From positions 1-30,141 of IMG/VR virus record IMGVR_UViG_2703718856_000006: a stretch of 30,141 bases of DNA. One strand, written 5' to 3'. Below the pieces are notes generated by a model, which saw nothing but the letters and a program-made list of their open reading frames with translations, ran no database searches and was not told the origin of the DNA. Positions 1 through 23,624 of this stretch are shown piece by piece; the stretch's first letter is position 1; every line of letters starts with the position of its first letter. This stretch comes from a virus (lineage: Duplodnaviria; Heunggongvirae; Uroviricota; Caudoviricetes). The translations under genes were made by a program, and so were the position numbers.

Positions 1-558
1 TCAGCTAGCTGGAAACTTTTTATACAGAGTTGAGAGCCCTACTCCATACGTTTTTGATACGCTTTGTCGTGATTCACCGGTTGCCATCCGCTCCCCCATT
101 TCCCGCCATTGCTCATCCGTGAACTTAGGCCTGCGACCACCAACTCGCCATTTTGCCCTGGCTACGGCCAGCCCTGCTAAGGTACGTTCGCTATTAAGAT
201 CAGATTCATATTGTGCTGCGGAAAGGATGTTACGAAAGTTATAGCGGCCGCTGGCTGTTTTGAGATCCACGCCATCGGTAATACTGCGGAAGTTGATACC
301 CTTTTCCTGTAACTGCTGGAACATCAACAGCGCATGCAGAACGTTGCGGCCTATCCTGTCCAGCTTCCACACCACCAGTGTATCGCCCGCATTCAGAGTC
401 CGCAGAAGCTTTTTGAGCGCTGGCCGGTTCGCTACCGTCCCGCTCATTTTTTCTTCAAAAACCTGTTCACATCCTGCGCGTTCGAGAGCTTGGCGCTGGA
501 GATCTGTATTTTGGTCATTTGTTGACACTCTGACATAGCCAATTTGCATATTTTTCAC
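1..558 (-). CDS. Serine DNA invertase (Gin/Pin/Hin/Cin family site-specific recombinase)
   Basis: Translation contains the N-terminal catalytic motif IGYVRVSTNDQNTDLQR and a C-terminal HTH (GVGLSTLYKKFPA), near-colinear with Mu Gin as recalled. Two in-frame ATGs (558 and 549); the second gives MQIGYVRVS, matching the Gin N-terminus. Lies directly beside an inverted-repeat-bounded segment. Confidence 0.9.
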   Translation of the reverse strand: MKNMQIGYVRVSTNDQNTDLQRQALERAGCEQVFEEKMSGTVANRPALKKLLRTLNAGDTLVVWKLDRIGRNVLHALLMFQQLQEKGINFRSITDGVDLKTASGRYNFRNILSAAQYESDLNSERTLAGLAVARAKWRVGGRRPKFTDEQWREMGERMATGESRQSVSKTYGVGLSTLYKKFPAS

Positions 559-583
559 CCAATAAATTCTGCAAAAAAATCAG

Positions 584-1462
584 GTGAAGTTATCGGCCAG
601 GCCGGCCCGTGGCAATCTATTAAACGTCGGTTTAGGAGATAGCGTCACAGCCAACTTCGGAAGCCTCGAGATTGGTGCAAAAAAAGCCTCTTCTGCAAGC
701 TTCATCGATTTTCATTTTCTTGGCACCAACGACTATGACGCACGCATCCTTTGTGGCGGCAATTCTAATGGCGCCATGGGGAAAGGAGACCTCACATTTT
801 ACGCAGGGAAATACGTTTTTATCGGCGATAGCTTTGAATTTCGTAATCCAATTACCTGCCAGAACAGCATCAGCGCATCGGCAAAAATAGCGACGACTGC
901 TGATATGGAATGCAAAACTAAAATTGCTGTTTTGGCCCCAGCTGACAATCAAGATGCCCATGTGTGGTTCTATGGCACAGGTGGGGCATCCAGGGGAGTT
1001 ATTTATTCCAGGCAAACAGGAATTATTCAGATCCGTCCTGACAACAATGATAATGGGGGCTCCAACGGATACTCTTTTGCATTTGGGGCTGATGGTAAGT
1101 TCACCTGCGTCACGATGAATCAGACTTCGGATGAACGAGTTAAATTCGACAAAGAGCCCGTCAGTAACGCTCTGGAGAAGATTTGTTCCCTGACGGGTTA
1201 TACGTTCGGCATCCAGTTGACTGAATCGGAATCGGTGCACAGCGCAGGCATCATCGCTCAGGATTTGGAAAAAGTGTTGCCCGTTGCTGTAAGTGCTGGC
1301 GCAAACGGCATTACTCCGACCGGAGAAGAGATTAACGATCTCAAAACCGTGGATTACAGCGCAATGAGCGCACTGTATGTGGAAGCGATTAAGGAGCTCT
1401 ACGACAGGGTAAGGAGCATGGAAAATGAGTTGGCTAATCTACAAGTTCGTTCAGGAGGCTAG
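584..1462 (+). CDS. Tail-fibre distal module B with C-terminal intramolecular chaperone-like domain (S74-like)
   Basis: 292-aa frame, open from 566 and starting at GTG 584 in the ORF track; first ATG is codon 65. C-terminal region has SDERVKFDKEP followed by AGIIAQDLEKVLPV and YVEAIKELYDRVRSMENELANLQ, recalled as the endosialidase-type self-cleaving chaperone pattern. Frame reads through site L. Confidence 0.6.
   Translation: MKLSARPARGNLLNVGLGDSVTANFGSLEIGAKKASSASFIDFHFLGTNDYDARILCGGNSNGAMGKGDLTFYAGKYVFIGDSFEFRNPITCQNSISASAKIATTADMECKTKIAVLAPADNQDAHVWFYGTGGASRGVIYSRQTGIIQIRPDNNDNGGSNGYSFAFGADGKFTCVTMNQTSDERVKFDKEPVSNALEKICSLTGYTFGIQLTESESVHSAGIIAQDLEKVLPVAVSAGANGITPTGEEINDLKTVDYSAMSALYVEAIKELYDRVRSMENELANLQVRSGG
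621..637. repeat. Left crossover site of invertible segment (gix/hix-like)
   Basis: Plus strand TAAACGTCGGTTTAGGA. Positions 626-637 (GTCGGTTTAGGA) are the exact reverse complement of 2139-2150; the match extends to 16 of 17 bp against 2139-2155. The AAACC core resembles Gin/Hin half-sites. 63 bp from the invertase start. Confidence 0.75.
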
Positions 1463-2150
1463 ATTTACTTGCCCGAGCCTGAAGTTGTAAAAGCTTTCAT
1501 TGCCTGTTCCAAACTAGCCAGCCGCTCCTCATGCCGATGAATCGTTTTCATTGCTACTTGTAACGCACAAAGGAGGTCAAGGATAATCGCGTTATTATCG
1601 AGAACAAGCCTTTCCCTATAGCCATGGGTAATTTTATTCCCTTCTTCATCAAACTCCTCTGTGCCGTCAGGTTCTCGGGTGTGCTTGACGTACAGAGGCT
1701 CAACCAGCTCCGCTTGTTGTGCGATAATCCCCCTCCGCACTCTCCGTTTTTCATCATCAATGTACTTAAATTTTCGCAGTTCCAGCGCTAGTATTTTTTC
1801 CACGGACTCCTGCCCGTCAAACTCCTCAATATCGCATTTGAAATTGATATCTGAGGTTCCAGCTAAAGCCAGTGTGCCCCCTGCAGCTGGGAAATTAATA
1901 ACCCATTGTCCTACCGAGTTTATGCGATTGCGACGCGCTATATAAAATAGAGGTGTTGCTCCAGGGTCGCCACCGGCCATTTCAATAAGATTTGTACTAC
2001 CTACAGCATCTTCATTATTTGACAAAGAAGTCAGGCTAAATGATGCATATGAAGCACTTTTTCTTACCGCCAGATTGTCACTAAACGTATTCCCCTTGTT
2101 TGTCATGGCAAGATAGGAACCATCCAAAAGCGCAGCTGTTCCTAAACCGA
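626..2150. other. Putative invertible DNA segment (~1.5 kb) carrying two alternative tail-fibre tip modules
   Basis: Bounded by the inverted repeats, adjacent to a Gin-family invertase, and contains two convergent ORFs with fibre-tip features. The reading frame passes through the site in both orientations, and both copies encode VGLG. Confidence 0.7.
1465..2127 (-). CDS. Tail-fibre distal module A with C-terminal chaperone-like domain
   Basis: ORF track starts at TTG 2127; first ATG at 2106-2104 (MTNKGNTF...). C-terminal DDEKRRVRRGIIAQQAELVEPLYVK ... LASLEQAMK parallels module B. Frame is open from 2157 through site R. Converges tail-to-tail with module B (stops 3 bp apart). Confidence 0.6.
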   Translation of the reverse strand: MDGSYLAMTNKGNTFSDNLAVRKSASYASFSLTSLSNNEDAVGSTNLIEMAGGDPGATPLFYIARRNRINSVGQWVINFPAAGGTLALAGTSDINFKCDIEEFDGQESVEKILALELRKFKYIDDEKRRVRRGIIAQQAELVEPLYVKHTREPDGTEEFDEEGNKITHGYRERLVLDNNAIILDLLCALQVAMKTIHRHEERLASLEQAMKAFTTSGSGK

Positions 2151-2155
2151 CCTTT
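2139..2155. repeat. Right crossover site of invertible segment (gix/hix-like)
   Basis: Plus strand TCCTAAACCGACCTTTA, inverted partner of 621-637 (12/12 perfect core, 16/17 extended). Confidence 0.75.
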
Positions 2156-2207
2156 AGTCACCATCACCGGCAGTCATGGCCAGCTCCGCAGCTCTCATTC
2201 TTTGGTT

Positions 2208-3446
2208 TTACAAAGAATCGGCAGGCATTTCGACACGCACGGACACAAACTGGTCACGGGGGATATCGACCGGGTCGCCATCATTGATACCCTGTAGCTC
2301 GTTCCTGGCGAACGCCGGTGCTTCCGGGTGTGTACGGTGATAGGTTTTCACCAGCACAGAACCGTCCGCATTAACTTCATAATCGAGCCAAATCAGCGGC
2401 TGCTTGTTGCGGTCAGTGGGGATATCAAAACCGCCGTCTATGCCTCCCCACGCGGCATCAGCATTAAGCCCCATACAGCCTTCAATGAGATATGCTCCGG
2501 TATTAATACGGGTTACAGTGCATCCTGCTGACTCATCATTCAAATGGAATGAACCATCGCTAAATATTTTGACGACTGGCGATGCTACTTTTAGTGTGCC
2601 GTCACTGGCCTTTGTAGTATTTCCTGTGCTGTAAAATTCGACAAGTTGCCCGTTATAAGTCGCATCACTACTCAACGTTCTTAAGTACAACTTGGGCTTT
2701 GTGGCGATAATAGTTGGGATGATTAACTGATACATGGTGTTGGCATCATACGGCACTTCGATCAACGAAACGTTATTGTCTATGCCACCAAGTAACATTA
2801 ATGCTCGATAGAACCCAGCCCCTACGCGGTCATCCTGATGAATCCTATTCATACCATTGCTGCCGACCCCGAAATCTCCGACTGCGAGCATTGAACCAGA
2901 AGTGCTATACGCGTCACGAGTGGCGCTACTTCCTAAACCGAGGTTTGTGCGAGCGGCTTCTTTGGTTTTTGCGCCGGTCCCACCCTGGTCAATACTCAAT
3001 GCTGTACTTAGCCCTTTCAGCTCTGTGATATCGCTATTTGCCCCTTTCCGGGCGAGACCACCGATGGCAGGAATGCTGAGGCTGGTGCCGTTGATTGTCA
3101 CAGTGACCAGTTGGTTCGCTGAGGTACTGGCGAACGTTTCCCACGCACCGATATTCTCGTCATACTCATTGATGAGCTGAGACATGGCCTGTGCCAGTCC
3201 ATCAACCGAGATAATGTCTGATACCAGAATGCCGTACTTCTGGCCGCTCAGCGCCGGGGAAGCAGCTGGAGTAACCGTCATTGACGTGGCGCTGTTCACG
3301 GATGAAATCTGAAACAGCTGCACCGGGTTAGACATCACGATAATCGTCTGGCCAGCGCGGACCTGGCTGGCCGGTGCCGTCCAGTTTGTACCCGTCCCGG
3401 TGGCGGTATTTCCATTAATGGCGATGGTGCCGGTGTTATAAAGCAT
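2208..3446 (-). CDS. Side tail fibre protein (Stf-like)
   Basis: ORF track gives 2208..3461 from TTG; the ATG at 3446 (MLYNTGTIAINGNTATGTGTNWT) has a GGAG Shine-Dalgarno 5 nt upstream. Contains the fibre-typical IDQGGTGAKTKEAARTNLGLG motif. TAA stop at 2208-2210. Confidence 0.75.
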   Translation of the reverse strand: MLYNTGTIAINGNTATGTGTNWTAPASQVRAGQTIIVMSNPVQLFQISSVNSATSMTVTPAASPALSGQKYGILVSDIISVDGLAQAMSQLINEYDENIGAWETFASTSANQLVTVTINGTSLSIPAIGGLARKGANSDITELKGLSTALSIDQGGTGAKTKEAARTNLGLGSSATRDAYSTSGSMLAVGDFGVGSNGMNRIHQDDRVGAGFYRALMLLGGIDNNVSLIEVPYDANTMYQLIIPTIIATKPKLYLRTLSSDATYNGQLVEFYSTGNTTKASDGTLKVASPVVKIFSDGSFHLNDESAGCTVTRINTGAYLIEGCMGLNADAAWGGIDGGFDIPTDRNKQPLIWLDYEVNADGSVLVKTYHRTHPEAPAFARNELQGINDGDPVDIPRDQFVSVRVEMPADSL

Positions 3447-3462
3447 ATTTTCTCCAGGCAAT

Positions 3463-3485
3463 AAAAAAACCCCGCCGGAGCGAGG
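3463..3485 (-). terminator. Rho-independent terminator between lipoprotein gene and stf
   Basis: Minus-strand RNA CCUCGC-UCCG-GCGGGG (6-bp stem with one G-U) followed by U7; sits 17 nt upstream of the stf ATG. Confidence 0.55.
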
Positions 3486-3506
3486 TTTATGTTTAAGCGT
3501 AGTGGG

Positions 3507-3740
3507 TTATTTGCAGGTTGTTTCGGTAAATGTATTCGCACTTACCCAGCGCCAGCTGAAAGGATATCCAGCCCGGTACTGCGTCTGGTTGTTTTGTTTA
3601 CGCACACCGTAAATCTGAACCGTAGTTTCCTGACCGCCAACGATTGCAGTGCCGCTGCAAACTGGTTCCTGTTTCTCAATTACGCCAGCGCATCCTGTAA
3701 GCATGACAGCGCCTGCCATGCAGATAATCAGTTTTCTCAT
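3507..3740 (-). CDS. Small lipoprotein, possibly Cor/Llp-like superinfection-exclusion protein
   Basis: 77 aa with signal peptide MRKLIICMAGAVMLTGC and lipobox LTGC. Lies between J and stf, where phi80/HK022-type phages carry cor. The functional assignment is inference from position and size. Confidence 0.5.
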   Translation of the reverse strand: MRKLIICMAGAVMLTGCAGVIEKQEPVCSGTAIVGGQETTVQIYGVRKQNNQTQYRAGYPFSWRWVSANTFTETTCK

Positions 3741-3851
3741 TTTGATAGTATCCAGAGGAATTCAGTATCTTAGACGATAACAATACAATTCTGGTGGGTA
3801 TAATTGATTGGATAGATCAATATTATGTTATTGATCGCTAAAAACGATCAA

Positions 3852-4526
3852 TCAATCATAGGCCGCTGTATTTATGGCGGTTAATGAAATGCCAGTATTC
3901 GTTCCCCCTCCAGGTGAACCTGCCCCAGTGGAGGTCCCCCCTGCGTTTATCCTCGTATTGGCCCCGTCAAACCTGCATGAAGAATAAGCATTTATCGTGT
4001 AGATAGTCGGAGGCTGGGTTGAATTATTCACAATGATGGTCTGACCCAACTGAGCAGGTGCAACGGCCCATGACCCGCTCAGCGTCTGGTCAATATTTAT
4101 CCCGCCGTTTGCACCAGGCGTGCCAACCGTCTGCAGGTCTGATAGCACACGGGACTCATTAGTTAACACAAGCTTTCCGCTCGCATCCCATATTGCCAAA
4201 CCCCATTTCGGTAATATCTGCGGGAATATGGCAAAAACGTACGCCGTTAAAGTGAAACTTTGGTTGTAGGGATTAACACCAGCAACATACACATTACCGC
4301 CGTTCCTGTAAGACATAACCGGAGTGGGCTGTGCTGTATTGGTGGTTTTGATAAAAACCATCACTGGGTAATCAGCGTTTAAAGCGATATTTTGAGCAAC
4401 CTGCTGAGAACTGCCATTCGCGGATGAATTGAAGGTATACTTCCCGTAAAGACAGAAAGGCGTTGATTGTGGCGTTACAAAGGGATTCCCGTTATCCATT
4501 AATATCATCGCGCCAAATTCGGCCAT
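3852..4526 (-). CDS. Hypothetical protein (224 aa), paralogue of the upstream 100-aa ORF
   Basis: Long ORF in operon orientation with ATGA overlap to the upstream gene; shares the W-D-A-S-G ... SGSW motif with it. Confidence 0.55.
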   Translation of the reverse strand: MAEFGAMILMDNGNPFVTPQSTPFCLYGKYTFNSSANGSSQQVAQNIALNADYPVMVFIKTTNTAQPTPVMSYRNGGNVYVAGVNPYNQSFTLTAYVFAIFPQILPKWGLAIWDASGKLVLTNESRVLSDLQTVGTPGANGGINIDQTLSGSWAVAPAQLGQTIIVNNSTQPPTIYTINAYSSCRFDGANTRINAGGTSTGAGSPGGGTNTGISLTAINTAAYD

Positions 4527-4828
4527 TATGCTTTCTCCATGAAAACGACCACCTCACATTTAGAGGCCGGGTAATTACCCAGGCCCACAGAAGAGGCTGC
4601 GGTTACGGTTATTGTGTTCCCTGACGCGACAATGCTCCTCCCTACGCTGTTACCTCCTTCATCAAGTGAGAGCGCAAAACCGACCTTCATTCCTGAGGGT
4701 ACAGTGAAAGACCAGCTGCCGGAGTTTTGTCCGGCGGCAAGTTGTATACGTCCAACAACGGAAACGGGCTTGATTCCGTAGTTGTTGGGGTTTCCCGAAG
4801 CATCCCAGGTCTGTATTCCATAAGCCAT
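4526..4828 (-). CDS. Hypothetical protein (100 aa) downstream of J
   Basis: Starts 2 bp after the J stop; contains QTWDASGNPNNYG and SGSWSF, paralogous to the following ORF. Confidence 0.5.
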   Translation of the reverse strand: MAYGIQTWDASGNPNNYGIKPVSVVGRIQLAAGQNSGSWSFTVPSGMKVGFALSLDEGGNSVGRSIVASGNTITVTAASSVGLGNYPASKCEVVVFMEKA

Positions 4829-4829
4829 A

Positions 4830-7800
4830 TCAGAACACCCCCGTTAATCGGCCAACCTGCACTCTCAGAACGTTGTTGCCATCCTTGACGCTGATTGTCT
4901 GGTTGGTCTGCTTCATGGCTCCCTCCCCAGCTGTCGAACCGTAGTTCTCAAACGTCCCGGACTTATCCAGTTTCCAGCCAACAGAGCCGGCAACATAATT
5001 GTTCGACTGGATGTAATTGCCAATTTTTGCATTGCTTATGGTCCCGTCGCCAATGACTGTATCCCTGATAATGGCCTGGCCATTCTGGATAACGAACGGC
5101 AGTGTTACAGTCCCGCCGACCATAGTAGTCACGGCGAAACGGTCTGCCAGGAAGATTACCTGTGACTGCATGCCGGAGGGTGTATTTTGAACCCCTATAC
5201 CCATCCCGGCAGCGTAATACTGCCCGTTACTGGACACCCCCACCTTGATGTTATACATCGCGCTGAGGTTACCGTTTACATCTGCTATAGCCTGTGCGTT
5301 GACGTTTATCGCTGCACTGTTTTCGCCTGATTTAACAGTCAGAGTGTTGATTTTTGTTGCCGAAGCCTGGGTGAAATCAGCAAGAGTTTCTGTCAGGTCC
5401 GTTGAGTTAGAGATATTGCCACCAGCTTCTGCATCCAGTGTGACCAGCGCGCGTGCGACCGCCTGGCTGGTATCGGCAATCGTAGTATCCACTCTGTCTA
5501 TACTGGCACTGTTCCCGGCGTTTGTTGCTGTCTGGGAACGACGACTGACAACCTGCGCCAGCCCATTCTGGATTATCGCAATTGCCGAATTCTTCACGCC
5601 TCCTGTCATACCGTCCATTGAAACGGAAATCTCATCGATTTTTACCGCCGCCTGCGCCAGCCCGTCAGCGTTTTCCTGTATATCTTTCGCCTGCTGCTCC
5701 AGCTCGTCTGCATGGTTTTTGATTTCGTCAGCCATGCCAGCAATTTTTTCGTTGCTGTCCACCGCGTTCTCGATCAGGTCTTTGAACGTTTCCGACTCTT
5801 TCATATCCTCCAGAATGTCATTAGTTATTTCGCTGACATCTATCGAGGACGTGCCCATGATCCAGTCGGTCCAGTCCCCGGCGTTACCGATACGGTCAAT
5901 CAGGCGCGCGCGGTACCACTGGCGAACGCCGGCAGGCATGGGGCCATGCTGATAATCTGCAGCCGGGTACGGCACCAGGACCAGCAGTTCAGGATTGGCG
6001 TAGTCGGCAGTTGTGGCGCGCTGAATCTCTGTATAGGCCGTGTCGCCTGAGCCATCCGGAAATTTCCAGGTCAGGTCGATATGCCAGACCACATCTTCGG
6101 TCGCCAGGAAGTTGAGCGGAGTACCCGGTTTTCCCGTTTTACCGGAGAGATAAGTTGTTTCACCGTATCCCCATGGTGACGACGTATCCTGCGCATTCAG
6201 CGCCCGTACGCGCACGTCATAGCTGCCCGAATAAATGCCCTGAACCGAGAAACCCTGCGCGCTGGTAACCGGAACGTTTATCCAGTCCCCGTTGTCCTTA
6301 CGCCACTGGGCAACATACCGGATTGCGCCCTCTACCTTATCCCATGACACGTCCAGGCTTGCTACAGTCAGCCCCTGAGACACATGATCGCTCTCAGTCA
6401 CCACGATATTCTTCGGAGCAGACAGGACGCTTATCGGCGTGACGGTGATCGGGGGAGACTCGACCCGAACGCCGTCATCGATGTAACGATATTTGTTTGG
6501 ATCGTGCTGAACGGCCGTAATAGTGAAACCGCCTGTACTGTCGTCGTTAGCCGCGATTGAGGTGACCCTGAAGTACTGTATTGCGAGGTTATCACTGTCT
6601 ATCGCCCAAACAGCGCCCGCCACAGGAACCTGACTGAATGCCGTAGCCACCGTCACCGTTTTTTTATCGGCGCTCACCGCGCTGATTGTCCGCGTCTGGG
6701 CTTTTCCGTCGGGAAGGTTAACCACCAGCCGGTCTTTCGCCGCGTAGTCTATTTCTCGATCGAGGGTAATTTGGCGGCCGTTGGCCGCGCTTATACGGCC
6801 CCCGTTCTCCTTACCAGAGCGGAAAGGATCGGCGACACCGATAATTTCAGCGGGCAAAGGGATATAACCGTCCAGCCCCACGCCAAACGATACGGTCCCG
6901 TCTTTGGCATTGGAGAGCAATACCCAGCGACCGCGTCGGTGCGCTTCACTTTGCGAGGTGCAGCCGATTGCGGTCAGGGACGTCTGCCGGACGTCGTAAC
7001 GTTCTACAAGCGCCGAATCGTAAACCCCCTCAACGGTATCGCTGTAATGGTTCTGCGGATCGGACCAGGACACCAGGCAGGAGCTGTAGCGATTCTTGTA
7101 TGAGCCGCCCGCATAAGTAAACAGCCCATCGATAACGTTTGAGACGTTATAAACCCAGTCAACATCGTCCTGCGGGACGTCTGCCTGGACATAAATCTGA
7201 TCGTTGCCCCAGAACGTTATTCCACGAAATACCGCGGCGAGATCGTTAAGTACCTGCCAGGCGTCCTCCTGGCTCTGAATGAAAACGTTGCAGGTGAAAC
7301 GCGGTTCGGTGCCACCGGCCCCGTCGGAAACCATTTCGTCACAGTACTGGGCGATTGAATACAGCGCCCACTTATCCACCATGGACGCATCCACGCGCGT
7401 GCCCATGCCGTAAATTTCATCCAGAACCAGATCGTAAAAGATCCAGGCAGGGTTATTGGACCATGCCATTTTGAACCCGCCGGACCATGAACCAGAATAG
7501 GTTCGGGTTTTCGGATCGTAATTATCCGGAACCTTAATCAGCTTGCCTTTTATCTTACAGGTCACTTTCGGCGCGCTGCCGTTGAATTGGCTGCTGTCCA
7601 CTTCGACATACAGGAGCGCTGTTAAAGGATAACGAAGCTTGCTGTCGATGACTTCCGCATACGAAAACACCTTGAAGGCGTTAACCAGTTTCGAATTTGA
7701 TCCGCTGGCATCAGCCGTAATACGCCTGACCCTGACAGACCAGCCGGACGTGGATTTTGGCAGATCGATACGGTGGTCACGCTGATATTCCGTCGTGGTC

Positions 7801-8321
7801 TTTCCGTCAAACTTGCCGTTTACAACCGTTTTCCAGGCGCCGCCGTCCGTTGATAAATCGATCGCATACTCGGTGACCGTGCCCACCATATCGCCATTAT
7901 CTTTATAGAGATACTGGACCGGAAGGCTGAGCTTGATACGGATGGCATCCAGGGAAAGGTTTGTAAACTGGCGCGTCCAGGGCGCGGTGGTGGTGACAGT
8001 TGTGCCCACGGCCAGCTCGTTGTCGACCTGGGGCATCCCGGCAATATAGGTCTGGTCCTGTGTGCCCTTGCGGAACTCCCATTTCACGCCGCTGAAGTTG
8101 TATTCCCCGCTGTCGTTTGCCAGCGGCGTATCGTTGAGAAAAATGTTCTGAGCGGTCAGGTCGCCCTGTATTTCCCCCTCAGAAACGGCAATGAGCATTT
8201 TTAATTTTGCGACCGACAGCAGATCGTCAGGCTGCTCAACCGGAGTATGTGAACTGCCACCTCCCCCTTTGGCACCCTGCAGGATGGTTTCTTGTTTAAG
8301 AAGCTGCATTTTTTCACCCAT
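4830..8321 (-). CDS. J: Host specificity / central tail fibre protein J
   Basis: 1163 aa; N-terminus (GSSHTPVEQPDDLLSVAKL...SEGEIQG) and conserved internal blocks (GGTEPRFTCN, FTITAVQHDPNKY) match lambda gpJ as recalled. Position after I. Confidence 0.9.
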   Translation of the reverse strand: MGEKMQLLKQETILQGAKGGGGSSHTPVEQPDDLLSVAKLKMLIAVSEGEIQGDLTAQNIFLNDTPLANDSGEYNFSGVKWEFRKGTQDQTYIAGMPQVDNELAVGTTVTTTAPWTRQFTNLSLDAIRIKLSLPVQYLYKDNGDMVGTVTEYAIDLSTDGGAWKTVVNGKFDGKTTTEYQRDHRIDLPKSTSGWSVRVRRITADASGSNSKLVNAFKVFSYAEVIDSKLRYPLTALLYVEVDSSQFNGSAPKVTCKIKGKLIKVPDNYDPKTRTYSGSWSGGFKMAWSNNPAWIFYDLVLDEIYGMGTRVDASMVDKWALYSIAQYCDEMVSDGAGGTEPRFTCNVFIQSQEDAWQVLNDLAAVFRGITFWGNDQIYVQADVPQDDVDWVYNVSNVIDGLFTYAGGSYKNRYSSCLVSWSDPQNHYSDTVEGVYDSALVERYDVRQTSLTAIGCTSQSEAHRRGRWVLLSNAKDGTVSFGVGLDGYIPLPAEIIGVADPFRSGKENGGRISAANGRQITLDREIDYAAKDRLVVNLPDGKAQTRTISAVSADKKTVTVATAFSQVPVAGAVWAIDSDNLAIQYFRVTSIAANDDSTGGFTITAVQHDPNKYRYIDDGVRVESPPITVTPISVLSAPKNIVVTESDHVSQGLTVASLDVSWDKVEGAIRYVAQWRKDNGDWINVPVTSAQGFSVQGIYSGSYDVRVRALNAQDTSSPWGYGETTYLSGKTGKPGTPLNFLATEDVVWHIDLTWKFPDGSGDTAYTEIQRATTADYANPELLVLVPYPAADYQHGPMPAGVRQWYRARLIDRIGNAGDWTDWIMGTSSIDVSEITNDILEDMKESETFKDLIENAVDSNEKIAGMADEIKNHADELEQQAKDIQENADGLAQAAVKIDEISVSMDGMTGGVKNSAIAIIQNGLAQVVSRRSQTATNAGNSASIDRVDTTIADTSQAVARALVTLDAEAGGNISNSTDLTETLADFTQASATKINTLTVKSGENSAAINVNAQAIADVNGNLSAMYNIKVGVSSNGQYYAAGMGIGVQNTPSGMQSQVIFLADRFAVTTMVGGTVTLPFVIQNGQAIIRDTVIGDGTISNAKIGNYIQSNNYVAGSVGWKLDKSGTFENYGSTAGEGAMKQTNQTISVKDGNNVLRVQVGRLTGVF

Positions 8322-8363
8322 AAAAAAAGGTGCCGAAGCACCTTTAAGTTAGTGGCCGCTGGC

Positions 8364-8981
8364 CTACTGCTGATCGCTCGAGTACATACCGGCGCTGACT
8401 ATCGCTCCCCCTGCCTCAGTCAGACCGTAGGCCAGGGGGACAGGATGCCCCATAGCGACGGTATTGACCGGCGCCCCGAAGGCGTAGTTAGGCGTGTTGT
8501 CCGTGCTGGAGGATTTACCCGCGCCGAAGGATGGCTGGGGCGTGAGCATCTGGACAACGCCCCCCAGCATCATCGACACTCCGACCCCTGTCAGAATTGA
8601 CGTGGCGCTGATAGCTGTTGCACTCATCGCCGCGCCCCAGGCTGCCATGCTCGCACCAGCGGTAAAGAATGCAGCGACCAGCGCAACAGCCCCGACAACT
8701 ATCTGCAGGACGCCCGAACTTTTGGCCCCCTCATAAACGGGCACGATCCGGTACACGCTTCCACCGCGGGTCATATCAAACTCTTCCAGCCCGATATTGT
8801 TGCCACCGTTAAAAAAGGCGAAACGGATCCCCTTCATATGAGCTTCAGACATATATTTTTTGAATCCGGGAACCTGTGAACACATGGCCCTGAGCATCTC
8901 GCGCAGGTCGGCAACATCAAACTGAACGCGTTTACCGAATTTTTTTGCCATTTTACCTTCGAGAATAAGCGTCTTAACCAT
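8364..8981 (-). CDS. I: Tail assembly protein I
   Basis: Start taken at MVKTLILEG (ORF track extends to 9098). Glycine/alanine-rich hydrophobic C-terminal half typical of lambda gpI. Confidence 0.75.
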   Translation of the reverse strand: MVKTLILEGKMAKKFGKRVQFDVADLREMLRAMCSQVPGFKKYMSEAHMKGIRFAFFNGGNNIGLEEFDMTRGGSVYRIVPVYEGAKSSGVLQIVVGAVALVAAFFTAGASMAAWGAAMSATAISATSILTGVGVSMMLGGVVQMLTPQPSFGAGKSSSTDNTPNYAFGAPVNTVAMGHPVPLAYGLTEAGGAIVSAGMYSSDQQ

Positions 8982-9693
8982 GCATTCTGTCCTTATGCCT
9001 GACCACCCGGACCGTTCTGTCGCGATAATATTTTCCATAAGGCGTTCGCGAAGAAAGGTGCCCGAAAAGATGATGGAGAATGATGTTATCACCCACATAT
9101 ACCGCGGCGTGATTAGTCACCGATGCCTGCACACTCATCATGATGATATCTCCGGGCTGCATTGCACCGGCGGCAATCTCAACGAATCCCTCACGCTCCC
9201 AGTTGTCGTCGTAGAGACGCTCCTTGCCGCTCTCCCACCATTCGTAAGGTACTGAATAATTGCCGAGAACAATGCCGTATTCGCGCAGATAAAATTCACG
9301 GATAAGCGACCAGCAGTCGGCGTAACCCAGCACCCACTGCCGCCCGGCATAATCCCGGTCTTCACGCGGGGAAATCGTACAAAAATCCCCGTCCGGCCAG
9401 GACATGATCCCCCACTCAATCCCCGACCAGTCGCACTGGATCCGGTCCAGCTCTGAGGGCACCAGCCGAACCACATCCGGATGGGAATGAATGAGCATGA
9501 TGATCTCACCGCGCGCGCGGGCAGCGAGCTGGTCTTCCGGGGAGAGCGTGAATGTCTCCTCGGGTTTATCGGCAATGTTGCGGCAGGGAATAAAGATTTG
9601 TTGCTGGCCTGACTGAACAATCAGGCCGCAGGCTTCTTTGGGGTATTCAGCAGCGACGTGCTGACGGATAGCATCCAGCAATTTTTCACGCAT
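8974..9693 (-). CDS. K: Tail assembly protein K (JAB/MPN + NlpC/P60-like)
   Basis: Start taken at MREKLLDAIRQH (track extends to 9792). Contains the HSHP metal motif and a C-terminal hydrolase-like region; lambda gpK position. Confidence 0.8.
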   Translation of the reverse strand: MREKLLDAIRQHVAAEYPKEACGLIVQSGQQQIFIPCRNIADKPEETFTLSPEDQLAARARGEIIMLIHSHPDVVRLVPSELDRIQCDWSGIEWGIMSWPDGDFCTISPREDRDYAGRQWVLGYADCWSLIREFYLREYGIVLGNYSVPYEWWESGKERLYDDNWEREGFVEIAAGAMQPGDIIMMSVQASVTNHAAVYVGDNIILHHLFGHLSSRTPYGKYYRDRTVRVVRHKDRMHG

Positions 9694-9695
9694 TT

Positions 9696-10433
9696 TTATT
9701 TCCCCTGCAGGTTTGCAGCCGGAAAACCGCCGAACGGCAGCGGCGCATCCGGGCCGTGACGCTCCTGACAATCCTGCCGGCGGCCGCCACAAACATCTTT
9801 CGACGGGTCATCGGTCGGTGTACCGTCTTTGGTAAAGTATTTCGTGCCGTTGTAATCGCATCCGGTCCCGCTTCGGTACCAGCCCCGCATACACCAGGTG
9901 CAGACAGGCGTAATCTGCCGTGTCGGCAGCTGCAGGCTCTGAATATCGAAAGGAGAACACAGCTCGAAATCAACCTGTACCCGCGTCTCTGCGGTTTTAG
10001 CATTGACGTAAAAGAGCTGTAAGCGCTCATCGGCCGGGCTGGCACCCGGATTACCGTTTTTCCAGTTGGCGGCATCGAGATACTTCGAAAGCGTGGTATG
10101 GATTTTGACCTTAGCCCTGACCATATCGTCATATTCAAGACACAGCGCGGTGACATAGTTTCCGACGTTCCCGACGGACAGCGTGGGCGTTGGCTGGGAA
10201 CCTGTACTCGATAACTCCATCCCCTTAAGTTCGTAGGGATGGGGATCGTACTGGTTTCCCTGCCAGATAATGGCGGGCAGATTTTCTGCGGCGAAGGCTG
10301 CCCACCCCTCTTCCTGAATATTGTGCGCATGAAAACGCAGCACCTGATCCATACCGAATTCAGTGCCGTCGATCTCAATCAGCTGAATAACGCTGCCGGG
10401 CTCAAGCTGTTGTATGTCTGCCGTAAAACTCAT
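9696..10433 (-). CDS. L: Minor tail protein L
   Basis: 245 aa with cysteine-rich C-terminus (CTWCMRGWYRSGTGCDYNG), typical of gpL; position between M and K. Confidence 0.85.
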   Translation of the reverse strand: MSFTADIQQLEPGSVIQLIEIDGTEFGMDQVLRFHAHNIQEEGWAAFAAENLPAIIWQGNQYDPHPYELKGMELSSTGSQPTPTLSVGNVGNYVTALCLEYDDMVRAKVKIHTTLSKYLDAANWKNGNPGASPADERLQLFYVNAKTAETRVQVDFELCSPFDIQSLQLPTRQITPVCTWCMRGWYRSGTGCDYNGTKYFTKDGTPTDDPSKDVCGGRRQDCQERHGPDAPLPFGGFPAANLQGK

Positions 10434-10489
10434 ACTCCCCCCATAAAAAAAAGCCGCCCGGAGGCAGCTTTCAGTGTTTTTCGAGAAAA

Positions 10490-10828
10490 TCAGGGCGCGA
10501 ACGCCTGTTCAAAAGTGAAGGCCACAGTGGCTTTTTTCCCGGTAGGGAAAGAAACGCTGAACGAATCGGCCTTCATTCTGAACAGCTTTTTTTCACCCCA
10601 TGGAGTGGTCCACCAGAACGATTTAGTAACGTGAGACATCAGGAAAGCGCGCAGCGCAGCCGCCTCCTGTCTGGTGCCCGTCCAGTCCAGGTTCCACGTT
10701 TCCTGTTTGTCGTTGATCCCCATCCCCGCTATCTGTTTGTAGCCATCCCCGAACTGGGCCTGCAGCGTTCGGGCTGTTTCAGTGCCCTGCGCTGTTTTTC
10801 GCGTGCGCCAGGTAAACGTGTCCGTCAC
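10490..10828 (-). CDS. M: Minor tail protein M
   Basis: 112 aa with FGDGY and WTTPWGEKK motifs similar to lambda gpM; 4-bp overlap with H. Confidence 0.8.
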
Positions 10829-13800
10829 TGTGTCCTCCTCGAATAAAGCACGCCGCCCGCGGACATTTCTTTTTTCAGTCGCTCGGTGATTGTCTGCTGA
10901 ACAATCGCCTGCAGCTGTTTCGCCGTCCCCGTGGCGTTCGCCTGATTTATGCTTCCGTCACTCCCCTGCTGGCTGATGCTGACTGGGGCATAAACACTGA
11001 TCCCGCCCATGCCAGCACCGGCTGCGTTCCCGCCGCCGACCAGACCACCCGAGGCATACCCGCGCATCAGGCGATAGAGATTAGCCACGCCGATGCGGCT
11101 GGTTGATTCTTTGGTGAAGACGAATTCCCCGCGGTGAACGATACCGGCTGGCTCGTACTTGCCGCCGTGCCCGGTAAAACCGCCCACGTCAAAACCCTGT
11201 GGCCGGTATGACGGGACCGCGAATGACTGACCGGCAGAGGAGGTTTTCGCCCCGCCGCTAACCCAGCCCATTGCACTCTGGATGGTGTAAGCCACCAGCA
11301 GCTGGTTGATAACGGACACAATCATTTTAAGGATCGAGCTGGTGAATTCCCTGAAGCTCGCCTTCCCGGTTGTCGTCAGGCTGGTAAGCTGGCCCGCCAA
11401 CCCGCTGAACGTAGCCTGAGAAATCTGCTGAACGGAGCTGAAAACGTTTGTCGCTGAATCCTGATATTCGGCCCAACCCTGTTTCGCACCGGCCAGCCAG
11501 TTTGCACGCAGGGCATCTTCAGCTTCGAACGTCGCCCTTTGCTCTTCCAGAACCTTTTGCTGCGCCTGAGGGTTGTACGAATAGCTTTCGCTGAGACGCT
11601 GCAGCGTAGTTTGTCGCCCGGCTTCCCGGGTGGATACCCCCTCAGACTGAGCCTGCAGGCCCGCCCTGGCGGCTTTTTGCTGCTGCTCAAACTTCACGGC
11701 CTGATCGGCCAGCTGGTTGAGCTTTTGCTGGCTGGCAACCTTATCGCCCAGATCGGCCAGCTGCCGCTTGTACTCGAGCGTTTCTTCCTTGTGCGCCAGC
11801 AGGGATTTTTCCTTCACCGTAAGCTGACGACGCCCCGCGGCCTCCTGCAGAACGGTGAACTGATTTTCAGTCTGCCAGAGATCCTGACGCTGTTTGCTTA
11901 TGACGTCGTTTACGCTGGTATGCTGCTCGAGCGTTTTAAGCTGGGCCTGAAGGGTGAGGAGTTCAGCCTGAGCTTTTTCCTCTGCCTTATCACCAGCAGG
12001 AGTGGTGTATCCTTTCGACTTGGGGACTTTTGGATCCTTATAGAGTTCCTCTATCCCCTTTCTGGCCTGAGCAATCTCTGCCTTACTGAGCGGCTTAACA
12101 CGCTGTCCCTCTGGAAGAAATTGCGTTTTTTTGACCAATTCAGCATTTGTTGTGATGGCTTTATTGAGTTCCCTTTCAGCATCTGCCCTTTTCTGTGCTT
12201 TGCTCGCTCCTGCGTCCAGGTACTTGTTCAGAATCCCCTGTGCTTTCACTCCTTCAGTATTCAGCTGCTGCGATTTGACCTGTGCCTGGTTGTAACCCTC
12301 CTGTGAACGAATCACAAAAGTAAGTTCACTTTCCTTCTGACGTAATGCAGCCAGCTCTTTTTCTGCTGCACCCCCATCACCAGTATTGCCCATTCCAAAA
12401 ACACCCGGCCGGGTGTTATCCGTCAGGGTTTTTATCCGTGCCCTGACAGACTCCAGCTGATCGCTGGCCGTTTGCTGGCGACCAATACCAAGGGCGGCAT
12501 CCCAGTAAGCGCCCCATGTATCCGTTACGCCACGAACAAAGCGATCTATCAGACCCAGGTTATCAAGTACCTGCTGGCTTCGCTGTTGCTCAGCAGCACT
12601 ATAAGCCTGCGCGGCCTTCTCTCCTGCCGCCTCTTTATCACCCCTGCGCTCAAGCTCGGAAATATATTGGAACTGAGCTGCCGAGAGGTAATGTAGCTGA
12701 CGGTTAAGCTCTTCTGACGCCTGTGATGGCGAATCATATAATTTCTTAAAGTTCGCGAGGGTTTTATCCACCGACTGCCCGACCGCGTCCTCCATTGCTG
12801 CAGCCGTCGTGGTGATGTATTCCAGCTGGTTTCCCCGGAACTGCCCGCTACCAACAACCTTCGCAAGAGTGGCAGCTGCATTTCCGGTGGTAACACCTGC
12901 CGTTTCTGAAATTTTGCGAGCTAAATCGCTCAGCTGTCCGGTTGTCTTACCGGCATAATTCCCCGTCAGAATAAGCTGTTTATTAAATTCAGATGCTTCA
13001 CTGCTGCCTTTGTACCAGGCAACGGCCAGTAGTGCCAGCCCCCCGACTAGCCCACCCATAGCAAGACGTACTGGAGTCAGAGCCCTCAGAAAACCTCTGC
13101 TGTGTTCTGTATTCTCCGCCAGTGCATTGGCATTTTCAGAAAGTGATTCCTCGGATTCATCTGCGGATGATTTAATCCCCAGTAACTCCTCTTTGATAAT
13201 CTGGAAAAGATTACCGACTCCACCGAATGAATCGCTGATTTGCCCGCCCTGCTGCATTAGGACCATCCACAGCGGCATTCCACCTGCTATCGAGGTTGCA
13301 ATATCCGTAAACTGAGCGGGTAACATACGGATCGCCTGGCGATACTGCCCGGCACTGAGCGTTCCTCTTCTCCATGCATTTTCCTGTTCCTGAAGTCTTG
13401 CAATAAGTGGTGCAGCTTCTTCACTTACACCCAGTTGCGCGGCCTTCAGATTCAGTAATTCGGTTCTGGATAATTTTTGTTCTTCAACCTGGGATTTGAG
13501 CTGTTGGAGAAACCGGGATCGAGCCTGACTGGCTTTTTCTTCGGCCTGTTGTAGTTCTTTTTGCCGGGCCGTGGTCTGGGATATCAGCGCAAGATAATCC
13601 TGCTGCGTGATATTCCCCTGCGCACGGGCCTTCCGGAATTGCTCCTGAACCGACGACAGAGAGTCCGTTTCTCCGGTCAGCGACCTCACGCCATCAATCT
13701 GTCGATAGAACGACGCCGCCAGCGCATCCTGTTGCTGCGCAAGCGCTGATGCCCGGGATGCGTTCTCCCTGAGTTGCTCACTTAATCCAGCCACTCGCTG

Positions 13801-14085
13801 GTAGGTTTGTTCAACGGACTCGCCGACTTTTTGCATGTCAGCGCTAAGACCAGCTGCAGCCGTTGACTGCTGAGCCAACATATCCGACATGGCCGCACCG
13901 CTGCCTGCAGCTGCATTAGCAAGCGCCGAGGCCTGCAATTCTGCGGCCTGTTGCATACGTGTACGGACTTTTTCGGATTCGTCCCCCATTCCGGTTAGCT
14001 GCCCCTTTATACGGGCAACCTGCTCGCTAAAAGTGGCACTGTCGACATCAAGGTTGATGACCAGGTCGCTAATCTGCTGGGCCAT
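10825..14085 (-). CDS. H: Tail tape measure protein H
   Basis: 1086 aa, long alpha-helical Q/A/E-rich protein with a central hydrophobic segment and glycine-rich C-terminal region; position after G/T. Confidence 0.9.
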
Positions 14086-14377
14086 ATCGGATACCTCCTG
14101 TTATCCCCTCAGCGGCGGTCATCAGCGTATCATCATCCGGCTCGTCATCGCTGATGACGCTTTCCGAAGGAGAAAGCAGGCTGAAATGTGCGGGGGTAAG
14201 TTCCGGATCGCGGAAGAAAAGAGTAGAGATGGAATAAAGCAGCCCGGAGAAATGCGCATCGAGCTGTGCGTCCTGAAAATAATGCTCCCGGTAGAACAGG
14301 TGCCAGTCGCCCAGTTCACTGGAAGTCATCCCAGCCAGCATGGCGCGCCAGTCGGGTCGACCGAACTCGCGCGCCAA
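14069..14377 (-). CDS. T: Tail assembly chaperone T region (expected to be made as a G-T fusion by -1 frameshift)
   Basis: [28 protein letters not shown] closely matches lambda gpT. The frame is open up to 14434, overlaps the G 3' end, and is in the -1 register relative to G. Confidence 0.75.
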
Positions 14378-14391
14378 ATTCAGGACAAACT

Positions 14392-14832
14392 TCAGCTCGC
14401 TGGCAAGGGCTTTTCCGCGGTAACGGATTCTTCGTTAGCAGAGGATTCAGTTACACCCTCCACGTCCTGATGATCACCTTTCTCATCTTCAACGGGGAAT
14501 AACATGCCTGATAGTAGCTTGACCTGCATTTCGGCTTTGCCGATAGCCTCCGGCGGCCAGCCGCTCAGGACCTGCTGATACAACTTTTCCACATCCGTGC
14601 CGGCCGGATCGTTATGCCACAAAGACATCGCGATCAAGCGCGCACCGCAGCGAATATTTGAACCTATCAGCCGGGTCGTGACTTCCTGATCGCTTATGCC
14701 ATCGCTGTCAGCGCTGACGGCCTTCTCCTCATTTGCCATAAACGTGAGGAACTCAATACGCTGAAGGGCCGACAGCTCGAAGATGGTCAGGGACTCTTTT
14801 TGCCAGGTGAAATTATCTTTTTTCAGAAACAT
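14392..14832 (-). CDS. G: Tail assembly chaperone G
   Basis: MFLK...LSELSALQRIEFL...AMSLWHN matches lambda gpG. Confidence 0.85.
   Translation of the reverse strand: MFLKKDNFTWQKESLTIFELSALQRIEFLTFMANEEKAVSADSDGISDQEVTTRLIGSNIRCGARLIAMSLWHNDPAGTDVEKLYQQVLSGWPPEAIGKAEMQVKLLSGMLFPVEDEKGDHQDVEGVTESSANEESVTAEKPLPAS
14405..14420 (-). other. Putative G-T -1 ribosomal frameshift site
   Basis: mRNA ACC GCG GAA AAG CCC UUG at the G/T frame overlap; GGAAAAG is a non-canonical counterpart of lambda's GGGAAAG. Exact slip position not determinable by eye. Confidence 0.4.
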
Positions 14833-14842
14833 GAGCCTTTCC

Positions 14843-15586
14843 TTATGCTGCTGTTACGGTGACTTTGCAGACCGCAACGAAATTACCGTCGCTGGTCATA
14901 ACAATAATGTCAGCGGTGCCTGCCGCCACGCCGGTGACCGTGATCGCATTGCCGCTAACGGTGACCGTTGCTTTTGCCCCGTCAGAGGTTGCCACGCGGA
15001 ACGAGGTATCTGAGGCGCTGGCAGGGTTAACCGTCACATTGAGCGTTGTTGTTGCGCCGACGGCCACGCTTACCGTGGCTTTATCGAGCGTAACGCCGGT
15101 CACGGGGATATTCGGGGTCCCGCTTTCTTCTGCCAGTTCCGGCTTGCCGGTATTGGTGATTTTCGCTGTACGGGTAATGACCTCTTTTGCCGGAATGGCT
15201 TTACCCAGGCTGCTGCACCAGCCGCGGAAAACGTCGACGGTACCGTTCGGGTATTTGATTTTGTAATAGCGTACTGAGCCATCAATAAACCATGCGACCA
15301 GGTCTTTTTGCCCTTCTTCACCCGGCTTCCAGGCGAGGGTGAACGAGGTATCGCCAGCAGATTTTGCCCCCTGGGCCGTCGCGTTCCAGTCGGCATCTTC
15401 GTCGTCGAGGTAAGTGTCGTCATACGATTCGGCGGTCATCTCGCCCGGCGTCAGCTCTTTAATTTTCGCCAGACGGTTCCAGTCGATATCCGAGAGTGGG
15501 TTAGCGAAAGCGTTGCCCGTTCCGGTGTAAAGCCAGAGTGTGGTACCGGCGCCTTTTACGGGTGCCAGCGGGTTTGGAGTAGGCAT
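14843..15586 (-). CDS. V: Major tail protein V with C-terminal Ig-like domain
   Basis: 247 aa; position and size fit gpV; C-terminal T/V-rich beta repeats look like a Big_2-type domain. Confidence 0.8.
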
Positions 15587-15595
15587 AAGTACCTC

Positions 15596-15997
15596 TTAAA
15601 TTGAATAGGTGATTAAGTACGTGAAATCGACAGAACCCCAGGTGGCCATTTCATCATCCCGCTGATAGTCATAACCCTGCGGGGTGAACGTCTCGACCAG
15701 TTCGGTCAGACCCGGTATGAAGGCCATTGCCGGATACACTTTCTCTTCCATCCAGGAATCAAGCGCGCTGTCGGGGCTGGAGGCTTTAAGAAATACCTCG
15801 ATGTGAACAACCGCCTGCCACGAATCTTCGTCAAGCGAATCGCCGGTGTACTCCGCGTCTGAAAGGTAAACAGCCACGGCAGGGAGATCCTGCTCTTCAA
15901 GAAAAACAGGGCGCCCGTCAAACCAGGTGACCGTGTCGGTGATCTCGGCTTTCAGTTTTGCCAGAATGGCTGCACGAATTGCGCTGTGTCTGTTCAT
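15596..15997 (-). CDS. U: Tail terminator protein U
   Basis: FDGRPVFLEEQDLPAVAVYLSDAEYTG ... HIEVFL ... GYDYQRDDEMATWGSVDFTYLITY matches lambda gpU. Confidence 0.9.
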   Translation of the reverse strand: MNRHSAIRAAILAKLKAEITDTVTWFDGRPVFLEEQDLPAVAVYLSDAEYTGDSLDEDSWQAVVHIEVFLKASSPDSALDSWMEEKVYPAMAFIPGLTELVETFTPQGYDYQRDDEMATWGSVDFTYLITYSI

Positions 15998-16572
15998 CGC
16001 TTCAGGTGAATCCTCAGTTGGTTTTTCAGGGCTGCGGAAAGTTCTTTAGGCATATCGCTTTCAATAAGGCGCTTTGAAATAGCGGTGAATGCCACGGTGA
16101 GCGGTGTCTCAAGAGGAACTTTGACCACATCAATCGGATAACGGGCCTGACCTACGCGCCGCATGACTTGCCAGCGCCCGTTCGCAAGCTGTTGAATAAA
16201 AGCGTTACGAAAGGTATAGGGTCCGATTTTGAGGACGCTACCCGCTCCGTTTCTGGCCCCTTTTTTACGCGAGAGCCGGACGCGCGCCGTGCCGAGCTTA
16301 ATCGCGGGAAGATTACCGCGGTTGATTTTTATCGACGCGACCGGGCGATCGTGGCGGGCCTTGCGCAGACGGGAACGCTGCCGAACCAGACGAACCGGAA
16401 GCCCCTTTTTCCGGTTATCATCAACTGTTGCTTCTTTCGCTACAGCTTTGCTCCCCTGGCTTATCGTTCTGCTGGCCACCCGGTTAAGTGCTTTTGCGGT
16501 TGCCTCAGGAACGATTAACCGGCTGAGGCTGTTCAGGTTCTGAATAGCCCTTTCCAGTCCTTTCACAGACAT
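15994..16572 (-). CDS. Z: Tail completion protein Z-like
   Basis: 192-aa basic protein in the lambda Z position, overlapping U by 4 bp. Confidence 0.65.
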   Translation of the reverse strand: MSVKGLERAIQNLNSLSRLIVPEATAKALNRVASRTISQGSKAVAKEATVDDNRKKGLPVRLVRQRSRLRKARHDRPVASIKINRGNLPAIKLGTARVRLSRKKGARNGAGSVLKIGPYTFRNAFIQQLANGRWQVMRRVGQARYPIDVVKVPLETPLTVAFTAISKRLIESDMPKELSAALKNQLRIHLKR

Positions 16573-16581
16573 AGCGCCTCC

Positions 16582-16857
16582 TCATTCGAGATGGATGCGG
16601 GGTTTTCCGTTGAACATGTCATAGCGGGTAACGATCAGGTTCTTACCGTCGTAGTCGACGCTGTCGTTTCGGCGTGGCTGGTAAAGCTCAGAGAAAACCA
16701 CCAGCGAAGTACCTGTTCCCGACAATGGCCCCATTTCCTCGAGTTGCTCGGCGGGAACAACGTCATAGCTGCTGCCATTGATGATCGCTGTCTTTCCCAT
16801 CTTTTTTATAGTGGCCGCGTCCATGCGCGCCGCCATCCGGTCAAAGGAGTTAGGCAT
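16582..16857 (-). CDS. Head-tail connector / head completion protein (FII-like), start uncertain
   Basis: Track ORF 16582..16920; candidate starts at codons 22, 29, 33 or 41. Sits between the head protein and Z. Confidence 0.5.
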   Translation of the reverse strand: MPNSFDRMAARMDAATIKKMGKTAIINGSSYDVVPAEQLEEMGPLSGTGTSLVVFSELYQPRRNDSVDYDGKNLIVTRYDMFNGKPRIHLE

Positions 16858-17176: not shown

Positions 17177-17258
17177 AACTTCTCCATTCAGCCCCTTTCG
17201 AGGCTGGTTTCAGGTATAAAAAAAGCCCTTACGGGCGTCTGTTTGTCAGGACTGTTTT

Positions 17259-19205: not shown

Positions 19206-19218
19206 GCGGAACCACGAA

Positions 19219-20906: not shown

Positions 20907-20926
20907 GTTTTGAATATCTGCTGGAT

Positions 20927-23529: not shown

Positions 23530-23624
23530 TTTTTGAACGATTCGACATGTTGCGAAAATGGCCTCTAATTAAATCAAAGACCTGCGCACATGATGATGAT
23601 GACCCTGGATCCGAAAAACTAGCC

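Follow-up and report, generated by a model that had tools for sequence, protein, structure and literature searches.

Invertase-driven switching of tail fibres is an established theme of the phages Mu and P1. In the G segment of Mu with its invertase Gin, as also in the C segment of P1 (Cin) and the P segment of e14 (Pin), a small serine invertase adjoins the invertible segment. The sites of Mu G are of the gix type, alternative C-termini are fused in frame, at the site, to a fibre N-terminus that stays constant, and the silent cassette is inverted and lies beside the invertase gene. All of these features are shared by the locus described here, which occupies positions 1 to 3446 of a 30,141-nucleotide stretch of tailed-phage DNA (IMG/VR record IMGVR_UViG_2703718856_000006; this whole stretch is called the window below). 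At this locus a constant N-terminal part of the side tail fibre, K, would be joined to one of three alternative tips (modules A, B and C) by inversion between three sites, L, R1 and R2. The window differs from Mu G, P1 C and e14 P in having three sites and three cassettes rather than two, in the absence of genes of the tail fibre assembly (Tfa) or U type, with two tips carrying an S74 domain and one a PF25670 domain, and in belonging to a lambdoid siphovirus rather than a myovirus.

Systems with more than two sites have also been reported. The Min multiple-inversion system of plasmid p15B, attributed to Sandmeier, Iida and Arber in 1992, is said to have six crossover sites and, like the window, a Gin-family invertase, with nested or adjacent inversions that shuffle fibre C-terminal cassettes behind one constant part. 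As Min is described, it is set apart from the window, which has three sites and four isomers, and in which each cassette is a complete tip that contains its own chaperone, rather than a sub-segment to be combined with Tfa genes. The S74 domains themselves resemble those of endoNF (3gw6), the T5 L-shaped fibre pb1 (4uw8) and GA-1 (3gud), in the Pfam match, in the invariant Ser-x4-Lys dyad and in the model fold of module B, but in the window the domain sits in invertible silent cassettes, unlike in these proteins. No relevant work was returned by a literature search for invertible segments with S74 or intramolecular-chaperone cassettes.

A precedent with fewer modules is provided by phage LLS (PQ299149), which has a K-C fibre (with PF25670) and an inverted S74 cassette, annotated inverted repeats IR-L and IR-R, an invertase named Fin and no Tfa gene. 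The window has in common with LLS the lambdoid virion module, a homologous invertase, the site core TCGGTTTGGGA and the lack of a Tfa gene. An earlier note on this DNA, made from the letters without database searches, had stressed that lack; it stands, and it is not unique, given the annotated C/S74 invertible pair of LLS. The Escherichia phage LLS paper describes switching merely as 'likely' (Genome Res 2025; PMC12315714). LLS and a second locus, L011 (a K-B' fibre plus C' as an inverted cassette), each have a pair of sites and a pair of cassettes, whereas in the window there are three sites, behind which C, B and A are stacked. What is already known is therefore invertase-driven fibre switching on the Mu/P1 theme, together with a two-module C/S74 precedent in LLS that is annotated though unstudied. 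What is new is a three-site, three-tip variant with cassettes that need no separate assembly genes.

We consider it very probable that the locus is an active nested switch of the Gin family, with three sites, three tips and four isomers, acting on the side tail fibre of an E. coli prophage. The switch would lie at the end of a lambdoid prophage of the mEp213/LLS type. K (3446..2942, minus strand; about 168 amino acids, with a GGAG Shine-Dalgarno sequence upstream of the ATG at 3446) would terminate in the gix-like site R2, and three promoterless cassettes would each open with the same half-site, read as (V/L)GLG. In the proposed arrangement C is fused to K, B lies behind R1 in the same orientation, and A lies behind L in the opposite orientation, adjoining the invertase gene. 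The invertase would pair sites of inverted orientation, with strand exchange at the central TC. Recombination of L with R2 would flip 2.3 kb and give K-A, recombination of L with R1 would flip 1.5 kb and only reshuffle the silent cassettes, and the two combined would give K-B. This predicts a cycle of isomers, from 1 (C expressed, as in the window) through 2 (A) and 4 (B) to 3 (K-C with A and B swapped). Because the four isomers form a cycle, single lysogens would release virions with one of three receptor-binding tips, and switching would probably change the host range. Tips A and B would fold by means of their own C-terminal S74 chaperone, followed by self-cleavage at the Ser-Lys dyad, and for this reason no Tfa genes would be needed. 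The earlier note had proposed a two-site, two-module device confined to 1-2210. Its central idea, the invertase-driven inversion of fibre-tip cassettes with S74 chaperones in place of Tfa, is supported, but its boundaries were drawn too narrowly: there is a third site at 2928-2953, K lies at 2942-3446, and a third tip, C, is the one expressed.

That the switch is real is argued by the flipped forms already present in public genomes. Positions 1-3447 of the window align colinearly, at 99%, to E. coli CX15, CX04 and MSB1_9D, and the colinear state is seen at seven loci, window included. In CX05, CX07, CX21 and EC23HZZ201, the segment 622-2946 is inverted in place. The CX strains were isolated from meat plants or wastewater in Alberta and are close relatives of one another, and the 5,325-bp locus of CX07, when re-inverted in silico, differs from that of CX15 at a single nucleotide. 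A further locus, L021 (GCA_918379805.1), agrees with the window at 99.9% identity on both flanks and within the segment, yet has 622-2946 inverted, as do L022-L024. This 2.3-kb inversion is the commonest one in public genomes and yields a 446-residue K-A fibre. The 1.5-kb segment favoured by the earlier note has also inverted in nature, in E. coli GCA_032852905.1 (L012), where 638-2139 is inverted between L and R1 and K-C is still fused. The invertible DNA is thus found in both orientations with breakpoints at the sites, for L and R2 in the clonal CX strains and L021, and for L and R1 in L012.

The products of these inversions can be followed at the protein level. The expressed side tail fibre gene (2208-3446, minus strand) encodes 412 amino acids and consists of K fused at R2 to module C, the C-terminal half being PF25670. 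K is identified as the first ~168 residues of this gene because R2 lies inside it, R1 being without a constant part; K matches phrog_1591 and phrog_12714. Inversion in silico gives fibres of 412 (K-C), 446 (K-A), 396 (K-B) and 412 residues for isomers 1, 2, 4 and 3, respectively. The predicted K-A is identical to a natural protein, P0049, at 446 of 446 positions, and the predicted K-B is identical at 395 of 396 to P0251 (E. coli EIS7894925.1 / ELL8688725.1). Natural K-B fusions are P0001 (386 residues) and P0251 (396 residues). The constant 5' part of the fibre gene is accordingly joined in frame to alternative 3' parts, and an identical K is found joined to C, to A or to B, all three fusion proteins occurring in natural genomes. 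With three crossover sites, three of the four DNA isomers (1, 2 and 3) are observed, and the candidate product of isomer 4 as protein only.

The three sites are 26-bp imperfect palindromes of the form AAACC-NN-GGTTT with a TC centre throughout, L being inverted with respect to R1 and R2. Site L (615..640, plus strand) has its central TC at 627-628, an outer half AAACG and an inner half GGTTTAGGA, and encodes NVGLG. Site R1 (2137..2162, minus strand) has its centre, GA on the plus strand, at 2149-2150 and a degenerate outer half AAAGG; it is the site that has recombined with L in L012. Site R2 (2928..2953, minus strand; GA on the plus strand at 2940-2941) is the best palindrome, AAACC TC GGTTT; it lies within the fibre gene and encodes NLGLG. 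The earlier note had recognised L and R1 and read VGLG at both, as is indeed encoded. Its inverted repeat is likewise present, at 621-637 and 2140-2156 (17 nucleotides, 94% complementary), with the correction that the perfect 12-nucleotide arms are 626-637 and 2140-2151, the right arm having been placed one position too early at 2139-2150. The longest inverted repeat in 1-4000, at 622-648 and 2920-2946 (27 nucleotides, 85% complementary), pairs L with R2. Allowing at most one mismatch, the site pattern occurs three times in the 30 kb, at 623-637 (plus strand), 2140-2154 and 2931-2945 (both minus strand). With up to three mismatches, 0.63 matches are expected by chance, and a fourth site-like match at 13643-13657, with three mismatches, was set aside as falling inside that expectation.

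Read from the outside towards the module, site L consists of CTATTAAACG, TCGGTTTAGGA and then GATAGCG; site R1 of GACTAAAGG, TCGGTTTAGGA and ACAGCTG; and site R2 of CGCACAAACC, TCGGTTTAGGA and AGTAGCG. The 11-bp core TCGGTTTAGGA is therefore common to all three, with an outer flank specific to the location and an inner flank specific to the module. In every hybrid junction of the natural isomers the outer flank stays with the location and the inner flank with the module, and since all of them behave in this way, exchange must take place inside the core TCGGTTTAGGA. The gix sites of Mu, taken at the annotated G-segment boundaries of AF083977, are TTATCCAAAACCTCGGTTTACAGGAA. R2 has 13 bp in common with them, AAACCTCGGTTTA, including the central TC; by analogy with Gin, this dinucleotide would be the point of strand exchange. 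R2 is the breakpoint of the inversions in CX05, CX07, CX21, EC23HZZ201 and L021-L024.

It is worth adding that in all three inverted CX strains the site proximal to K reads AAACC-TT-GGTTT rather than AAACC-TC-GGTTT (1506-1516 of L001, which is CX07, and 1006-1016 of L017 and L018, which are CX21 and CX05). The TT centre lies at the equivalent of window 2940-2941 and is the sole difference from CX15 over 5.3 kb after re-inversion, and the other inverted loci (L004 and L021-L024) retain TC. This C-to-T change may be a natural lock on one state, in that non-identical centres should, by analogy with Gin and Hin, block further inversion.

The recombinase needed for these events is encoded next to site L. 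The open reading frame (ORF) at 1-558 (minus strand) matches Pfam Resolvase (1.1e-38) and HTH_7 (1.6e-9), its top match in the Protein Data Bank (PDB) is Gin 3uj3 (E=4.5e-62), and it is 56% identical to Mu Gin across 181 residues, with the catalytic serine kept in VRVSTNDQ; the family assignment of the earlier note is thus correct. The gene itself is better taken as 1..549, giving 182 amino acids from the ATG at 549, which is the RefSeq start for the same invertase in CX15 and CX07 (549 nucleotides); the mechanical ORF reaches a GTG at 558. The protein has the characteristics of a small Gin-related serine recombinase of about 185 residues, namely a catalytic N-terminal domain with its active-site serine and a C-terminal helix-turn-helix, and it is the probable catalyst of the inversions. 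The enhancer of Gin is said to sit in the 5' part of the invertase gene. When window 300-549 is aligned to Mu gin, the first ~100 nucleotides of the gene are near-identical, including many third codon positions, and the sequences diverge deeper in; coding constraint and an enhancer are inseparable in that alignment. Inversion may depend on Fis and such an enhancer.

Module A (626..1462, plus strand) consists of a tip of about 165 residues followed by an S74 intramolecular chaperone, and module B (1465..2151, minus strand), convergent with A, of a tip of about 90 residues followed by the same type of domain. Peptidase_S74 (PF13884) matches both above the gathering score, in the ORF at 584-1462 (plus strand) with 4.8e-11 and in that at 1465-2127 (minus strand) with 9.3e-10; the scores are 43.2 and 39.1 bits against a cut-off of 22. 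Both modules also match the C-termini of tail-fibre PHROGs, so that profile searches agree with the earlier note in making these ORFs fibre and chaperone domains. Of the self-cleavage signatures it named, SDERVK in A is present, beginning 181 codons past the first V of VGLG, and is invariant. In B the counterpart is SDINFK rather than DDEKRRV, because S102 and K107 are invariant in 29 homologues. Both modules thus combine the PF13884 match with a conserved Ser-Lys dyad, the point at which tips A and B would undergo autoproteolysis. The AlphaFold2 model of module B has a predicted local distance difference test (pLDDT) score of about 90 over the S74 part, and Foldseek relates it to 7dc3 (MyRF), 3gw6 (endosialidase), 4uw8 (T5 pb1) and 3gud (GA-1) with probabilities of 0.99-1.00. 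The chaperone fold anticipated by the earlier note is thus found for B by structure comparison; for A it is indicated by a sequence match of its C-terminus to PDB 6f45, the S16 long tail fibre distal subunit (1.6e-7).

Module C (2208..2930, minus strand), the tip expressed at present, is of a different kind: it is a Phage_tail_C_2 domain (PF25670, 8.9e-61) without S74. It is the same type of module as the cassette in the two-module systems of L011 and LLS, and in the inverted isomers it is orphaned and annotated 'missing N-terminus'. Between its stop and R1 lies a non-coding spacer (2152..2207, minus strand), whose start overlaps the 12-nucleotide sequence AAAACCAAAGAA. In 1-3461 no Tfa-like ORF or Pfam match was found, and the alternative tips have no Tfa/U-type assembly-chaperone gene of their own in that region, of the kind seen in Mu G, P1 C and e14 P.

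Several observations weigh against an active switch of this form. The K-B junction of a three-module locus was not found as DNA in 5,426 complete E. coli genomes. Synthetic queries joining K-B and the invertase flank to B gave no single-piece match in these genomes, and the matches at 100% coverage consist of two pieces 1.39 kb apart, that is, of isomers 1 or 2. Exact-match scans of viral and metagenome contig collections were also without a window-type K-B junction; the R1-spacer pattern has no exact match in the viral contigs, and in the metagenome contigs it identifies two loci, both colinear with the window. P0251 may represent either isomer 4 or a deletion product of the directly repeated R2 and R1. 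The outer half-site of R1 is poor (AAAGG), and L012, the one product of L and R1 that was seen, has an insertion sequence (IS) element in module A. The AlphaFold2 model of module A is unusable (pLDDT 35). Finally, the isomers come from assemblies rather than reads.

One alternative is a simple two-site switch, in which A and B are expressed in turn through inversion of 1.5 kb between 626-637 and 2140-2151. The inverted repeat does exist, the segment is inverted in L012, and precisely this layout exists in related loci (L005-L010), where K is fused to B and flipped K'-A proteins of 436 residues are known. In the window, however, nothing is fused upstream of R1. The earlier note held the module frame to be open through this site, but it is open for two codons only: on the minus strand, stop codons stand 2 and 4 codons upstream (…CR(stop)W(stop)LKVGLGTAALL), no constant part adjoins the site, and upstream of R1 in the window neither a promoter nor a start codon preceded by a Shine-Dalgarno sequence is evident. 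The fibre gene has a tip of its own, C, and terminates at 2208, and in L012 the fibre remains K-C. Because the frame is closed two codons upstream of R1, inversion of 638-2139 alone leaves the expressed tip K-C unchanged, and we regard a two-site A/B switch as very unlikely here. A programmed -1 frameshift from a 14-codon spacer ORF into the R1 frame was also considered and ruled out, since a slippery sequence is absent and there is nothing upstream to fuse.

It could also be argued that the locus is a decaying relic, in which module C, acquired from an HK544-like phage, locked the fibre as K-C and left A, B and the invertase as fossils that flip rarely or never and leave the virion unaffected. 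HK544 and many prophages have K-C as a fixed fibre, colinear loci are common (the seven noted above), R1 is degenerate, module A of L012 carries the IS element, and the inverted CX strains have a mutated crossover dinucleotide, all of which would fit such decay. Against this, R2 arrived with module C and is the best of the sites, and it has recombined with L in the clonal CX strains, in EC23HZZ201 and in at least four distinct ones of the eight contigs with P0049, including one whose identity to the window is 99.9%. Moreover, the invertase ORF, the three cassette frames and the S74 catalytic residues are all intact. A relic is therefore unlikely, if somewhat less so than the two-site switch. 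Least credible of all is that the rearrangements are not catalysed by an invertase, and stem from RecA-type recombination at short repeats or from assembly artefacts. Nothing specific speaks for it, beyond the fact that inverted repeats can mislead assemblers and that the isomers are known from assemblies. Identity from site to site is just 11-12 bp, which is too short for efficient RecA recombination; the same breakpoints recur across complete long-read genomes and independent drafts; and the sites match Mu gix, central dinucleotide included, and lie beside a Gin homologue. An active three-site switch remains the preferred interpretation.

Among the relatives of the locus, L005-L010 represent the same prophage beside yciI-tonB with two modules, K'-B being fused, A inverted, and the invertase following. 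In its flipped form, this two-module arrangement gives the 436-residue K'-A proteins and a 242-residue ORF running from the invertase flank into B. The window matches L005 at 99.6% over 1-2150 and at 97.8% over 3038-5816, and between these stretches window 2151-3037 (the end of K, R2, module C and the spacer) stands in for 65 nucleotides of L005, the right-hand break lying exactly at the centre of R1. Homology to phages with a fixed K-C fibre, such as HK544, stops at 2214, and that to L005 at 2150. Homologous invertases are found in phi80 (pinL), mEpX1 and HK225. In its virion module (8000-23676) the window has 98% identity to mEp043 and mEp213; to LLS it has 97% nucleotide identity over about 15 kb.

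In other E. coli prophages this invertase backbone is associated with gp53-like tips and Tfa genes, or with pyocin-knob tips. In NZ_LT883142 (2592610-2595409) the invertase and cor flanks are ~94% identical, with two gp53-like tips and two Tfa genes between them, and in NZ_CM173878 (2819219-2821702) flanks of the same ~94% identity enclose a pyocin-knob tip. Since these two share their flanks and differ in their cassettes, the invertase backbone pairs with chaperone-dependent and chaperone-less tips alike.

More tentatively, and with rather more doubt than confidence, the gix-like site may also serve as a docking point for the gain or loss of whole cassettes between phages, with the invertase acting to assemble and trim a small 'shufflon' of self-chaperoning tips. 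This possibility is raised because the match of the window to L005 is interrupted precisely at the crossover dinucleotide of R1 (2150/2151), because related prophages have S74, PF25670 and gp53-like tips (the last with Tfa) placed behind this same invertase and site, and because the 396-residue K-B protein could stem from a deletion between the direct repeats R2 and R1.

If the proposed three-site switch is correct, it would mean that invertase-driven switching of host range in lambdoid prophages of E. coli can use self-contained tips with their own chaperone, and that a single additional site is enough to raise the number of stacked tips to three. Compact and defined in sequence, the locus has isomers that are present in clonal isolates, so that the proposal is easily tested. 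A possible use is the engineering of phages or tailocins with switchable receptor specificity that do not require matching Tfa chaperones. For annotation, the implication is that ORFs of 220-292 residues labelled 'tail fiber domain-containing protein', and pseudogenes labelled 'phage tail protein, missing N-terminus', when found beside recombinases, would be silent cassettes rather than decayed genes.

Some further features of these loci may be noted. The 12-nucleotide sequence AAAACCAAAGAA forms an exact direct repeat, at 2198-2209 (from the stop of module C into the spacer) and at 2958-2969 (in K, 16 nucleotides upstream of R2), which may be a trace of the origin of the R1 junction, or chance. 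The tip of module A (window 776-1395) has 88% nucleotide identity to the gene for a 'long tail fiber protein distal subunit' of Escherichia phage Eeyore (PP925821), which suggests that this tip has been exchanged outside the prophage family as well. In L012, module A is interrupted by a transposase gene (5367-6595; rve and HTH_Tnp_1) at about window 838-845, and these eight positions are found on each side of the insertion. MSB1_9D has two prophages, at yciI-tonB and near a tRNA-Pro gene (L003, NZ_LR890349 2795887-2799381, and L016, 1745268-1748725), each with the complete three-module array and invertase, colinear with the window.

Upstream of the fibre gene, a terminator-like hairpin with a T-run (3467-3488, minus strand) separates the start of that gene from cor (3507-3740), and a terminator is annotated at the matching position in HK544 and its relatives. 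Expression of the fibre would need read-through of this hairpin, presumably by late antitermination. The region between J and the fibre gene (3507-4828) encodes Cor (phrog_1119), a lipoprotein of superinfection exclusion, as well as two conserved ORFs. These are 224 and 100 residues long, match phrog_425 ('membrane associated protein') and phrog_557 ('outer membrane protein'), and are the counterparts of the p25/p24-like genes of HK022.

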